Assembly: GCA_000165345.1 (NCBI GenBank)
Contig: CM000431.1
Coordinates: 160,001-224,000 of the forward strand
DNA length: 64,000 bases
Reading direction: 5' to 3'
Positions 17,529 through 21,851 of the stretch are shown piece after piece. A program made the position numbers and the translations under genes. Numbering within the stretch: the first letter of the stretch is position 1; every line of letters starts with the position of its first letter. The notes under the pieces were generated by a model. That model did not search any database, had not been told where the DNA came from, and worked only from the letters and a program-made list of their open reading frames with translations.

Positions 17529-20500
17529 TTGAGAAAAAGTGAAAAGTGCAGGAAAGAGATAATGAAAGCGTTATTCCTGGCATTTTTAATAATTTTTATA
17601 GGAGGATGGGGTGGGGGAAAGCTGGTTAGAGTGGAATCTTTAAAAACAAGTGCAAAAAGGTATCAAGAAAGAGAAAGGGTTCCATCTCGTTTGCCTCCAC
17701 CAAGAGAAGAACCTCCGGTATTTCAAAGATATTTATATTCCTATCCAAAAGATTATGGTTATTACTTTTTTAATAGAATTAGTGATTCCAATTACTGGGA
17801 TCGTATTAATGGAGAAAATAAGCAAATTCCAATTGAGGGTTGGCAATGGGACAACACATCTAATAATTGGTTATGGGGTCCCTTAAGAAACCAGGATGGT
17901 ACACCATTACTTCCTTTGAGTCCAGAATTAGAAGCTCCAAGAGCTTATGTGGGCCCTACTCGTATTTATGGTCCAATTCAAGTCGATGATTTACCAATTC
18001 CAAGAGTTTTAGATATAATTTGTAAACCTTATGAAAGTTTAATAGGTATTAGAGCATGGTTTCCCAATCCTGAAAGTAAAGGAAGGAAAGATCTACGTGG
18101 GATTCAGTTCTTATGTTCTTCTCCTTTAGATACAAGAGTAAAAGGAGGGTCTAAACATTCAACATGGAGTAGGATTATGGGAAATGTTGGCCCAAATTTG
18201 AAAAAGTACACTGTTTTGACGCGTCCAGAGGATCCTTTTGTCAAAATTAGGGTTTTTGTTGAAACTTTAAACCCAGTAAAGCATCAGTCCCAAAGAGAGT
18301 TAGTTATACCAACCTATCAAGGTCCAAGATTAGTGTATATAGATAATCAAGAAGAAGCATTGGAAAAAGGTCCAATATACCTTATTAGAAGAATAACTTT
18401 GAGAACCAAGAATAATCATCTGAGTTTCTTGGGTAAGGCAGGAGGTAATTTACCTTCAGTTGTAGAGTCTGCTCCAGAAGGATATGAGCTTTCAGGATTC
18501 AGAATCTTGATTTCAGGATATCCAAGAAGTAAATGGAGGGGAGCTGACTTTTCAACTTTGGCATACAGAAACTCCATATCTTTAGGATTTCTCTTCTCAA
18601 AGACTGAGGATATACTGTCTCGTCCTCAAGTTATTTATGGTAGAAGAGGATATGATTTCCAAGATATTAAATGCGATGGGAAGATCACAGGATTACAAGG
18701 ATTTTTTATGGGAAATAGAGGGTTGGTCGGTATTAAAGTTGAATGTGACAGAGTATGGCAGGAAGTTATTTTGGGAATTACAGAAGGAACTGATTATAAG
18801 GCCTTGGTTGGGAGTATGATCAGTGCTGTGACTTTGCATTTATCACCAGAAAAGTTTATCCAAAGTCTGGTGGTATTCTCTACAACAGGTAGACAACAGA
18901 AGTTGGGTGATGATTGGGTTACTCCTACAATAAGATCCTCTAAATCAGAGGGGGGAGGAAGAGGAAAGATTCTACAAGGAATCTTTGCCGAGTTGGACAA
19001 AACTGGAGCTATTTCAGGAATTGGTTTCCATTGGAAGAAGCCTCCAAAGCCGGGTCAGGCTGGGGATAGGGAGGATTATGGTAATTTGGAGGTTTCTGAA
19101 TCTCCCTTGGAAGGAGGAGACACTGGATCACTTGGAAATTCTTCAAAGAAGGAGATTGTTCCAAGAAGCTCCTTCTATGGTAGAGTTGCTAAGGATTGTC
19201 CAATCCTGGAAACCAAATGTCCCACGGGTGTTCCATTGACAGGTCTACGTTTAATTATGAGAAAGGGTGAGACCCAGCCAAAACCCTTTAAAATGTACTT
19301 AGTTTCTTTGTCAATCCAATGTGGAGACGAGTTCTTTAAGCCAGTTGGGAATCCAAATCTAATAGAAGCAGGTAAGAAGAGGACTTATGACATTCTGATT
19401 CATGAAGAGGATCCAGTTGTAGATTTCAGGGTTTATCTTGGTGATCTTGGTCTTCCTCATCTTTTTGATCTTCGTTTCAAACATGATGTATTAAGTAGTT
19501 ATGAATTATATGGATTCAGAGTTGCTATGATGATTAGAAGTGAGAGAATTGGTGCGATTGCTCCTCTTTATAGGGTTGCAACTCCTATTGATTTACCTCC
19601 AATCACTGCAAAAGACATTAGTATTCGTCTATTTGGAGCTGTTAGACCTGAATCTGATCCAGATGTGGTAGTACTTGAAACATCTTGTCCACCTGGAATC
19701 CCTATTACAGCTGTTAGGATGTGGTTTGTAAGGAAGATTGAGGGAAATAATGTTTTCTCTAGGTTAGTTGGTCTTAGAATTCGTTGTGGTTCTAAATGGA
19801 GGAAGACTAAACTTGGAAGTAGTATGGGAGATAGATTTGAAGCTGAAGTGGAATCTGGGGACTTCTTCTCAAGATCCTTTGTTGAGAACCAATCCGAGAA
19901 GCCTTTCTATGTGAGTGGGATAATGCTAGTTACTTTAGAGAATAGAAAGTCATCTTTTGGTGAGACAGGAACAGAAATTATGAAGAAATTGGCATCAGGT
20001 GATGTTGAATCTGAAATATATGGATTTATTGGACAGGAAACACCAGAAGGATTAGTTTCTATTGGGTTCCTTGAGAGAAAAGCAAATTACGATGATTATC
20101 CAACATTTAATGATATTGAAGTGGCTCCATATCAAGTTTCTGCTTCAGATATCCAAGGAGAATCAGAAGGTTCTTTGAATGAGGAAAAGTTAATAGAAAG
20201 CGGAATTGTGAACTTCAGGCCCGGAGAGGAGTGGTTTGGACGTAGAGGATTAGGGGGATCTCATGCAGAAGAGACTTTCTGTGCTCCTGGAAGCAGGTTA
20301 ACTGGTCTTTTGGTACATACTTCAACAAAGATTCCTCATTCGATTATTGGTTTGACTTTAATATGCGATGGCAAGCCATTAAATCCAGTTGGAAGTACTT
20401 TGGGAGATATTGCCAGGTATGAGATTCCAATGAATGAGCCAATAGAAAAGGTTGAAGTTGTATTGAATAAAGAAGATAGATCACTAAGTAGATTAAAACT

Positions 20501-21851
20501 TTTCAATAGAAACCATATGAAAAAGAAGATGGGAAAATTACATGATAGATTCTTGAGTGGATTTGATGTAGAGATTAGAAAAGGAATGATAACAGCTTTA
20601 TCAGCAATATATACTAACTTTGGGGATTCTGGTCCTCCTCCAAAGGTAAGAACAGTACTTGGATCAAATCAAGTAGGGTCAGGTTCAGCCCCAATAACTG
20701 ATAGAAACACTCCATGGGGTCATGCAAATGCAAATGGAGATGTAAGTACTGGAGATGAGTATTCGTGCGAGGAAGGAACAAAACTTACTCAAATAACTAT
20801 GGCTTATAAGAGGAACTCTATAGAACAGAAACAAGAATTAATAGGTTTGAGGATTACTTGTAATGATGAAGATTATGAGCAAGTTGGAATGTGGGATGTT
20901 TCAGATAATAATTATATTCTTGTAGAGGAAACCTTTGGACTGAGGGAAAAAGAGTTTATAATAGCGATAGGAGGAACCAGGATTGATAAGACTCATAGTA
21001 TAGGAAAACTCTATTTTGAGACAAATCTTCTAAGACAGTTTGGGGAATGGCAGCATTATTATGTGGAGGCAAAAACAAGAGGAGATGGGTTGTATGGATT
21101 TGAATTGTTATTTGAGAAGACAGGAGATTATACAACTCCAATAGCAATGCTATTACCATTGTTCAGACCAACTTCAATGGATACAAGGAGTGAAGATTTG
21201 GAAGAGAAGAAATATAAATCTCCATTTGAATTACCAAAAGCAGTAGCAGAGTCATCAGAGGAAGCAAATGAGCAAGAAATGAGAGGAATGTTAAGTTCTC
21301 CAACAATTGTTACAGATTGGATTGGATTGGACATTGGAAGCTTAGAGATGGATGGAATTTGGTGTAAGACTTCAAGGCTAAAGTTGGATGGAAGAATGAC
21401 TTGGGAAGATTGGAGGAACTCAAGAATGACAGGATTGAGAGTATATAATGATGGAGACCACATTAAAGGAATAGCTCTTCAATGTGGGAATTCTTGGTTA
21501 GAGGAGGCAAATCTTGGTCTAGTTGGCCCGAAGTTCCATTTTGATGAAATTAGTGATTGTTTGGAGAGTGATGCTGATTATATAGAGAATATTGAAGTTG
21601 CTATTGATTCTAGAGGTATTCCGGCAGGGTTTAAAGTATTTAGCCACGTTAAGAGGCAGAAGAAAGTTTTAATTAATAATAATTCTATGGTGACTTGGCA
21701 ATCAAATGTTCCAGATTCAGGAAATCACTATGCTTCAGGCATTCATGTTGAATACGACCCTGATACTAATATTATATTCAGAGTTAGAATAGTCTATCGT
21801 CCAATTTCAATTGCAGAAGACCCTGAGGAAAATGTCGGGTTTATATTTTAA
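17529..21851 (+). CDS. Large secreted protein (about 1430 aa) built from at least seven tandem copies of a Cys-containing module of roughly 130-180 aa. The module may be lectin-like or another beta-sandwich; it is an unknown family.
   Basis: The likely start is the second ATG at 17562 (MKALFLAFLIIFIGGWGGG, a signal peptide). Each module has C-x2-G-x-[PR]-[LI]-T-[GA]-[LV]-R followed about 15-25 aa later by [VI]-x-G-[LI]-x-[LI]-x-C-[GND] (for example ETKCPTGVPLTGLRLIM...LVSLSIQCGD; ETSCPPGIPITAVRMWF...LVGLRIRCGS; FCAPGSRLTGLLVHT...IIGLTLICDG; YSCEEGTKLTQITMAY...LIGLRITCND; RMTGLRVYNDGDHIKGIALQCGN). Confidence 0.6.
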   Translation: MRKSEKCRKEIMKALFLAFLIIFIGGWGGGKLVRVESLKTSAKRYQERERVPSRLPPPREEPPVFQRYLYSYPKDYGYYFFNRISDSNYWDRINGENKQIPIEGWQWDNTSNNWLWGPLRNQDGTPLLPLSPELEAPRAYVGPTRIYGPIQVDDLPIPRVLDIICKPYESLIGIRAWFPNPESKGRKDLRGIQFLCSSPLDTRVKGGSKHSTWSRIMGNVGPNLKKYTVLTRPEDPFVKIRVFVETLNPVKHQSQRELVIPTYQGPRLVYIDNQEEALEKGPIYLIRRITLRTKNNHLSFLGKAGGNLPSVVESAPEGYELSGFRILISGYPRSKWRGADFSTLAYRNSISLGFLFSKTEDILSRPQVIYGRRGYDFQDIKCDGKITGLQGFFMGNRGLVGIKVECDRVWQEVILGITEGTDYKALVGSMISAVTLHLSPEKFIQSLVVFSTTGRQQKLGDDWVTPTIRSSKSEGGGRGKILQGIFAELDKTGAISGIGFHWKKPPKPGQAGDREDYGNLEVSESPLEGGDTGSLGNSSKKEIVPRSSFYGRVAKDCPILETKCPTGVPLTGLRLIMRKGETQPKPFKMYLVSLSIQCGDEFFKPVGNPNLIEAGKKRTYDILIHEEDPVVDFRVYLGDLGLPHLFDLRFKHDVLSSYELYGFRVAMMIRSERIGAIAPLYRVATPIDLPPITAKDISIRLFGAVRPESDPDVVVLETSCPPGIPITAVRMWFVRKIEGNNVFSRLVGLRIRCGSKWRKTKLGSSMGDRFEAEVESGDFFSRSFVENQSEKPFYVSGIMLVTLENRKSSFGETGTEIMKKLASGDVESEIYGFIGQETPEGLVSIGFLERKANYDDYPTFNDIEVAPYQVSASDIQGESEGSLNEEKLIESGIVNFRPGEEWFGRRGLGGSHAEETFCAPGSRLTGLLVHTSTKIPHSIIGLTLICDGKPLNPVGSTLGDIARYEIPMNEPIEKVEVVLNKEDRSLSRLKLFNRNHMKKKMGKLHDRFLSGFDVEIRKGMITALSAIYTNFGDSGPPPKVRTVLGSNQVGSGSAPITDRNTPWGHANANGDVSTGDEYSCEEGTKLTQITMAYKRNSIEQKQELIGLRITCNDEDYEQVGMWDVSDNNYILVEETFGLREKEFIIAIGGTRIDKTHSIGKLYFETNLLRQFGEWQHYYVEAKTRGDGLYGFELLFEKTGDYTTPIAMLLPLFRPTSMDTRSEDLEEKKYKSPFELPKAVAESSEEANEQEMRGMLSSPTIVTDWIGLDIGSLEMDGIWCKTSRLKLDGRMTWEDWRNSRMTGLRVYNDGDHIKGIALQCGNSWLEEANLGLVGPKFHFDEISDCLESDADYIENIEVAIDSRGIPAGFKVFSHVKRQKKVLINNNSMVTWQSNVPDSGNHYASGIHVEYDPDTNIIFRVRIVYRPISIAEDPEENVGFIF

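Follow-up and report, generated by a model that had tools for sequence, protein, structure and literature searches.

The jacalin-related lectins (PF01419), which include BanLec, jacalin, Heltuba and griffithsin, are built from domains of ~140 amino acids (aa) with a three-part Greek-key sequence pattern: an N-terminal 'wG' followed by a '..I.gI.v....i.gl.i.y/C' hairpin, a middle part of the form 'E.I..v.G......i..L.f.TN.r..fG', and a closing strand, 'l.GF.......i.aIG.y'. Tandem arrays of such domains occur in plants, in the Parkia platycephala/biglobosa lectin (three domains) and the Arabidopsis myrosinase-binding proteins, which have active mannose sites and short linkers. The animal beta-prism proteins ZG16p, ZG16B (PAUF) and WGA16 are single-domain proteins of ~16 kDa from secretory granules, and ZG16p has been described in pancreatic zymogen granules as a condensing or sorting factor by which cargo is aggregated. 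In Vibrio cholerae, the prisms of RbmC, Bap1 and cytolysin are units of the extracellular matrix or of host-surface adhesion. Here we describe a protein encoded by one open reading frame (ORF) in a 64,000-nucleotide (nt) stretch of Cryptosporidium parvum DNA (positions 160,001 to 224,000 of the forward strand of contig CM000431.1, assembly GCA_000165345.1; hereafter the window), in which we recognized seven modules that are probably strongly divergent relatives of these domains. From gene order, this protein appears to be the dense-granule protein DG1.

The modules of DG1 are similar in length to the jacalin-related lectins and have all three parts of their sequence pattern, the middle part being best preserved in module 6 (IGKLYFETNLLRQFGEW). 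Unlike those lectins, they contain an invariant pair of cysteines, the second of which replaces the usual aromatic residue; in addition, they lack the Asp of the GxxxD loop, their GG loop is degenerate, and modules 1 and 7 carry large insertions. In contrast to the tandem jacalins of plants, DG1 comprises seven domains separated by long acidic linkers, lacks a canonical site, and is an apicomplexan protein restricted to one genus. It likewise differs from the single-domain ZG16p, ZG16B and WGA16, with which it shares no significant sequence similarity, and any claim of common descent must stop at the fold superfamily. The V. cholerae prisms are among the structural matches to DG1, but these bacterial domains retain the Asp that binds glycans and occur together with beta-propeller or pore-forming domains.

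In two reviews, cgd3_600 is DG1, which belongs to the first four dense-granule markers to have been validated experimentally, and its function is listed as unknown (PMC12407990, PMC12688253). According to the literature, DG1 persists after secretion as an organised ring at the interface between host and parasite, and the parasite vacuole and the interface are stained by VVL, a lectin that binds N-acetylgalactosamine (GalNAc). The domain architecture of DG1 is not described in the accessible Cryptosporidium papers, and a literature search combining Cryptosporidium and jacalin returned no relevant paper and none describing such an architecture.

Coding sequence and repeated modules

The single unbroken ORF at 17529-21851 (+) is 1440 aa long when counted from its mechanical TTG start, the length given in a preliminary description of this DNA. 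Those coordinates are correct, but the length is an artefact of the TTG, as the first ATG, at 17562, gives a product of 1429 aa. The 1429-aa translation is identical to C. parvum Iowa II EAK89201.1 (UniProt Q5CV19), whose 90% cluster also contains proteins of C. hominis, C. meleagridis, C. tyzzeri and the chipmunk genotype. The only strongly hydrophobic residues are 4-22 (MKALFLAFLIIFIGGWGGG; Kyte-Doolittle maximum 1.9), a segment whose composition and position fit a cleaved signal peptide, and a hydropathy scan of the whole protein found no second segment resembling a transmembrane (TM) helix. Because the sole hydrophobic stretch is N-terminal and several orthologues carry a signal-peptide protein annotation, the protein is predicted to be soluble and secreted, in agreement with the earlier view of a large secreted protein. 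The features of the gene and its product are as follows.

17562-21851, + strand: coding sequence, 1429 aa plus stop; EAK89201.1/Q5CV19, by gene order presumably cgd3_600 (CpDG1)
17562-17627, + strand: predicted signal peptide, approximately aa 1-22, hydrophobic core aa 4-19; cleavage site approximate
17628-17936, + strand: N-terminal region outside the repeats, aa 23-125, with much Pro, Trp and Tyr; dissimilar to the modules
17937-18611, + strand: module 1, aa 126-350, Cys154/Cys185; jacalin-like with large insertions; E=2.7e-7
18612-19052, + strand: module 2, aa 351-497, Cys371/Cys395; E=5.2e-5 against the pooled profile of modules 3 to 6
19155-19586, + strand: module 3, aa 532-675, Cys553/Cys587 and the extra Cys546; E=1.8e-7 with module 4
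19623-20087, + strand: module 4, aa 688-842, Cys709/Cys742; weak ZG16B match
20211-20627, + strand: module 5, aa 884-1022, Cys907/Cys935; E=7.4e-6 with module 6
20703-21173, + strand: module 6, aa 1048-1204, Cys1069/Cys1100; the most jacalin-like module
21297-21848, + strand: module 7, aa 1246-1429, Cys1268/Cys1308; E=6.7e-6

Fourteen of the 16 cysteines form the seven pairs listed above, one per module, and all 14 are invariant in seven Cryptosporidium orthologues. Each pair brackets a hairpin-like segment of the form '...[IL]TG[LIV]R ... [LIV]xG[LI]x[LIV]xC'. The preliminary description had recognized a Cys-containing module, but the strict motif in which it was first written (C-x2-G-x-P-[IL]-T-G-[LV]-R ... 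G-[LI]-x-[LI]-x-C-G) matches module 3 alone, the remaining six modules matching the relaxed form. In module 7, an insertion pushes the first Cys upstream. The two unpaired cysteines are Cys546 in module 3 (19197-19199), which is invariant and has no obvious partner, and Cys1333 in module 7 (21558-21560), which is not conserved in C. muris.

Homology among the modules was assessed by cutting the alignment of Cryptosporidium orthologues into one profile per module and comparing the profiles with each other. The core modules proved clearly related, with matches between modules 3 and 4 (E=1.8e-7), 5 and 6 (E=7.4e-6) and 4 and 6 (E=2.6e-5). When the profiles of modules 3 to 6 were pooled (M3-M6), modules 1, 2 and 7 aligned to the pooled profile in full-length register with E=2.7e-7, 5.2e-5 and 6.7e-6, respectively, the alignment of module 1 extending over 143 columns. 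Controls against the same profile gave 0.65 for the N-terminal region and 0.12-0.32 for reversed profiles, and profile comparison of the N-terminal region with the modules found no similarity (E 0.02-1). Judged by these comparisons (E 2.7e-7 to 5e-5 for modules, 0.1-0.65 for controls), the repeat is real and comprises seven homologous modules that would have arisen by internal duplication, which upholds the earlier count of at least seven copies. The modules vary in length from 139 to 225 aa, identity between them is low (21-28%), and the linkers that join them are acidic or rich in Ser, Gly and Pro. The duplication appears to be ancient, because self-BLASTP of the protein gave no internal matches and Tandem Repeats Finder detected no tandem repeat in the DNA. 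The suggestion that a lectin-like all-beta module had been duplicated long ago, leaving little identity between copies, is thus supported by the profile comparisons.

Module 1 also contains a ~40-aa insertion that is itself conserved. A match to PH_3 (PF14593) at aa 252-286 (18315-18419) within this insertion was rejected as noise, its score being 13.6-16.8 bits for a cut-off of 25; the same sub-threshold match recurs at this place in five of the seven orthologues.

Orthologues from seven species showed 59-99% overall identity, with 60% for C. muris, and this strong conservation within the genus argues for a conserved function over a fast-evolving antigen. Word-indexed homologue searches, one starting from the single sequence and one from the orthologue profile, retrieved seven Cryptosporidium proteins, no others and no paralogues of the target. 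The preliminary description had left room for the module to occur beyond this lineage; an exhaustive HMMER search of 1.84 billion cluster representatives with a profile of aa 345-1429 (E<=0.001) recovered nothing beyond the cluster of the protein itself. As far as sequence searches can tell, this is a single-copy family confined to the genus.

Relationship to the jacalin domain

Evidence of kinship with jacalin came from module 6. Precomputed Pfam annotation listed PF01419 (Jacalin), which has a gathering cut-off of 22 bits, for two orthologues, and module 6 scored 30.6 bits in C. felis, 35.8 bits in C. bovis and 22.4 bits in C. muris. Scanned alone, module 6 of C. parvum reached 21.4 bits (E=3.6e-4), 0.6 bit under the cut-off, in an alignment covering profile positions 9-122 of 136. 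Modules 1-5 and 7 had no match to PF01419 in Pfam, and the whole C. parvum protein had nothing above threshold in Pfam and only the PH_3 match below it. We regard these six modules as jacalin-like because they are homologous to module 6 and because the family profile aligns to jacalin.

The latter alignment was made with hhalign against a sample of 59 PF01419 proteins obtained with a banana-lectin query and reduced to 29 non-redundant sequences. The M3-M6 profile matched this sample with E=3.8e-4 and the seven-module profile with E=1.7e-4, while family profiles built on module 6 and on module 4 as master sequence gave E=2.8e-5 (74% probability) and E=4.3e-5, respectively. The four alignments comprise 114-132 columns and are in register, running from template residues 6-8 or 22 through 139-145; except for the one with module 4 as master, they span essentially the whole domain. 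In control comparisons, a reversed jacalin profile gave 0.39 and 30 column-shuffled profiles gave 0.052 or worse. Single-module profiles matched the jacalin profile weakly (E 0.0017-0.13), and only the pooled profiles were convincing. The three-part jacalin pattern is visible in the alignment of all modules as an N-terminal 'fG/wG' followed by the Cys-bracketed hairpin, a middle part 'E.I..v.v ... i..L.f.tN.r..fG' (in module 6, IGKLYFETNLLRQFGEW) and an end 'eLyGF ... i.aI..ly'. Sequence searches of the PDB with the full-length and M3-M6 profiles returned only ZG16 and ZG16B, both of jacalin fold, at non-significant E 0.07-0.7.

Taken together, these results make it probable that the modules are highly divergent jacalin-like beta-prism I domains and hence represent a known fold rather than a new one. 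The preliminary description had regarded the module as unrecognised and specifically as not jacalin, a view that is contradicted by the module 6 orthologues that pass the PF01419 cut-off and by the homology of the other modules to module 6. Its exclusion of ricin-B, PAN/apple and SUEL agrees with the Pfam scans, in which the whole protein and the individual modules had no such matches at E up to 10. Another family, vitelline membrane outer layer protein I (VMO-I, PF03762), was considered for its 'C..G....G.....I.l.C' appearance and rejected; neither its three ~50-aa Cys repeats nor a match to the family model was found.

Structure prediction pointed in the same direction for the C-terminal modules. 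AlphaFold2 (AF2) models were made for aa 126-850 and aa 851-1429 from alignments of only six sequences, because there are no homologues outside the genus, and we treat the fold searches as supporting evidence because both models are of low confidence. Beta-prism I proteins dominated the top 50 Foldseek matches to the model containing modules 5 to 7, led by the three-domain Parkia lectin; further matches included a two-domain myrosinase-binding protein, jacalin, ZG16b and griffithsin, and, among bacterial proteins, the prisms of V. cholerae cytolysin, RbmC and Bap1. In the alignment to BanLec, the first Cys of each module falls at about residue 20, before beta2, and the second at residues 44-46, at the end of beta3. 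Both cysteines would therefore be near cross-strand neighbours of the beta2-beta3 hairpin, making an intramodule disulfide plausible, and the pair probably forms a disulfide linking the end of beta3 to the stretch that precedes beta2. The motif that had drawn attention to this protein sits at the beginning of the jacalin domain, where it makes up the beta2-beta3 hairpin and carries a genus-specific invariant Cys pair.

In the jacalin-related lectins, the sugar-binding GxxxD motif lies in the beta11-beta12 loop (BanLec G129 to D133), and 26 of the 29 sampled jacalin sequences have its Asp (D133); across six Cryptosporidium species, the residue in the aligned column is I/M/V, G, G/S, V, T/V/I, T and F for modules 1 to 7, respectively, and never Asp. 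This column was placed identically in four independent master alignments. Module 6 retains 'GDY', with Thr where the Asp is expected, and is the only module to keep the Gly at the position of BanLec G129; the GG loop is degenerate, although its first Gly has an invariant Gly of the modules opposite it in the alignment. The second BanLec site is not conserved in the modules when they are aligned to the jacalin profile. Absence of the GxxxD Asp from every module in six species makes classical lectin activity doubtful, and on these alignments jacalin-type monosaccharide binding by any module appears unlikely. The proposal that the protein is a carbohydrate-binding factor accordingly cannot be affirmed.

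Gene order, upstream motifs and neighbouring genes

The identification of the protein as DG1 follows from two flanking genes. The ORF directly upstream, 13488-17009 (+), encodes a 1173-aa protein that has four hydrophobic segments in its N-terminal part and contains an alpha/beta hydrolase domain (DUF900, 80.9 bits). In PMC11809919, cgd3_590 is the C. parvum orthologue of PfQRP1, the Plasmodium quinoxaline-resistance protein, and the published description, with four TM segments and an alpha/beta hydrolase domain, matches the upstream ORF. Downstream, an acyl-CoA synthetase gene (29397-31454) is the fourth ORF after the target and fits CpACS1, which is cgd3_640 according to PMC8717973. With cgd3_590 as the upstream anchor, cgd3_640 downstream and three ORFs in between, the target corresponds to cgd3_600, and we infer from this order that EAK89201.1/Q5CV19 is CpDG1. 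The count up to cgd3_640 takes the ORFs 25529-26776 and 26754-27701 as two genes. These minus-strand ORFs, of 415 aa and 315 aa, share 23 nt that each reads in its own frame, and Pfam gave no match for either; they could be neighbouring genes or a single gene split by an intron or frameshift.

Upstream of DG1, two short motifs precede the start codon.

17495-17502, + strand: E2F-like box GGCGGGAA, followed at 17505-17512 by TGCATGCA; the pair lies 50-67 nt upstream of the ATG

The presence of an E2F-like box and an adjacent motif at the start of the gene had been reported correctly, but it does not point to tight regulation of this gene, as both motifs recur throughout the window. TGCATGCA occurs 10 times (0.34 expected) and GGCGGGAA five times (0.2 expected), mostly in other intergenic regions. 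Accordingly, we rejected the pair as a mark of special regulation. A second pair is found at 8824-8862, with GGCGGGAA on the minus strand at 8824-8831 and TGCATGCA at 8855-8862, in the divergent intergenic region between the ORFs 6501-8153 (-) and 9085-10428 (+). This second pairing indicates a recurring promoter arrangement; the pair is a general Cryptosporidium upstream element, and 17495-17512 is likely a promoter element of a type common across the window. In addition, two overlapping copies of TGCATGCA (TGCATGCATGCA) lie at 6410-6421 between the 3' ends of the convergent ORFs 4602-6083 (+) and 6501-8153 (-), an unusual placement for a motif normally found upstream of genes.

The window is AT-rich (GC about 30-31%) and contains long intronless ORFs. 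GC falls to 0.23 at 24001-26000 and 0.19 at 28001-30000, very AT-rich intervals on either side of the ORFs that immediately precede the acyl-CoA synthetase gene. The next gene downstream of DG1, 23185-24276 (+), encodes 363 aa with several hydrophobic segments, low-complexity tails rich in Asn, Gln and Tyr at both ends, and no Pfam match. Within the DG1 coding sequence, a 111-aa antisense ORF (21128-21463, -) is most likely a chance ORF. The neighbouring genes encode two MFS-type transporters, a KaiC/RecA-like ATPase, the hydrolase, the acyl-CoA synthetase and an ABC transporter, together with several proteins that have no domain match, and the domain annotation of the window contained nothing suggestive of a functional cluster with the target.

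Possible roles of DG1 at the host-parasite interface

As a whole, the data are best explained, and we think probably so, by DG1 being a protein of seven divergent jacalin-like domains that serves as a multivalent scaffold or cross-linker at the interface. The protein would consist of a signal peptide and a short N-terminal region followed by seven tandem jacalin-like beta-prisms, arranged as beads on a string. It would be stored in the dense granule and then secreted, after which its seven rigid domains would provide a multivalent binding scaffold or cross-linker within the interface ring. The ligands would more likely be proteins, or glycans bound through a non-canonical surface, than classical monosaccharides, because every module has lost the GxxxD Asp.

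Several points weigh against this explanation. Pfam gave no direct match for six of the seven modules, which makes their assignment to jacalin indirect, and neither the HMMER search of 1.84 billion proteins nor the PDB sequence searches returned a jacalin protein at significance. The AF2 models had low predicted local distance difference test (pLDDT) scores of 30 (aa 126-850) and 38 (aa 851-1429), and Foldseek found no meaningful matches for the model containing modules 1 to 4. The posterior probability of the column aligned to the GxxxD Asp was only 0.4-0.62. The equation with cgd3_600 rests on gene order and not on a record linking accession to locus tag; a search of supplementary data for such a link found only a proteomics row for cgd3_600. 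The localisation of DG1 is taken from secondary citations of Guerin et al. 2023 (Cell Host Microbe), and the scaffold or cross-linker role is itself one that we infer.

An alternative, which we hold to be doubtful, is that DG1 is a genuine multivalent lectin whose beta-prisms bind glycans through a shifted or non-canonical site, with the Tn/T-antigen O-glycans on mucins of the parasite, or the glycocalyx of the host brush border, as candidate ligands that would be cross-linked at the attachment site. The jacalin-like fold is overwhelmingly carbohydrate-binding, the best structural matches are lectins, tandem multivalency is known from the Parkia lectin and the myrosinase-binding proteins, and the VVL staining indicates that suitable GalNAc-containing ligands are present at the vacuole and interface; the invariant Gly aligned to the first Gly of the GG loop is also in keeping with such activity. 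This proposal must nevertheless accommodate the loss of the GxxxD Asp, found in 26 of 29 jacalin domains and in none of the seven modules in six species, and the lack of conservation of the second BanLec site. In its strongest form, which seems to us unlikely, DG1 would be a multivalent lectin of a hitherto unrecognised, disulfide-stapled beta-prism subclass in which a new glycan site replaces the GxxxD pocket. In that case, cross-linking of Tn/T-antigen mucins of the parasite or host brush border by DG1 would build the ring or dense band that holds Cryptosporidium on the enterocyte, and DG1 would be both a structural keystone of the parasite's unique epicellular niche and a target for intervention specific to the genus.

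DG1 could instead act inside the granule, as a condensing or sorting matrix protein similar to ZG16p, the interface ring then being a mere deposition site of granule contents. Among solved structures, ZG16, ZG16B and WGA16 stand nearest to it in sequence and rank with the best fold matches, DG1 resides in dense granules, and its high conservation across the genus is as expected for structural housekeeping. The ZG16 sequence matches are not significant, however (E 0.07-0.7), and an organised ring of DG1 reportedly remains once the protein has been secreted; we rate this role as distinctly improbable. The thought that the modules form a new fold or family unrelated to known lectin domains draws on the low identity between modules, the lack of a Pfam match above threshold for the C. 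parvum protein, the absence of homologues outside Cryptosporidium and the want of a confident AF2 fold; we consider it largely refuted and give it very little credence.

The composition and assembly of the structure at the host-parasite interface are poorly understood. The reading of DG1 as a seven-jacalin-domain protein provides the first structural and functional hypothesis for it, namely multivalent binding or cross-linking at this interface, and the module boundaries can be used for recombinant expression, structure determination and mutagenesis. In sum, the module represents a known domain in a strongly divergent form specific to the genus, within a protein that already has a name, and no new kind of system, and, on this reading, the jacalin superfamily reaches into a genus-restricted apicomplexan lineage in which the standard family models miss six of the seven copies.

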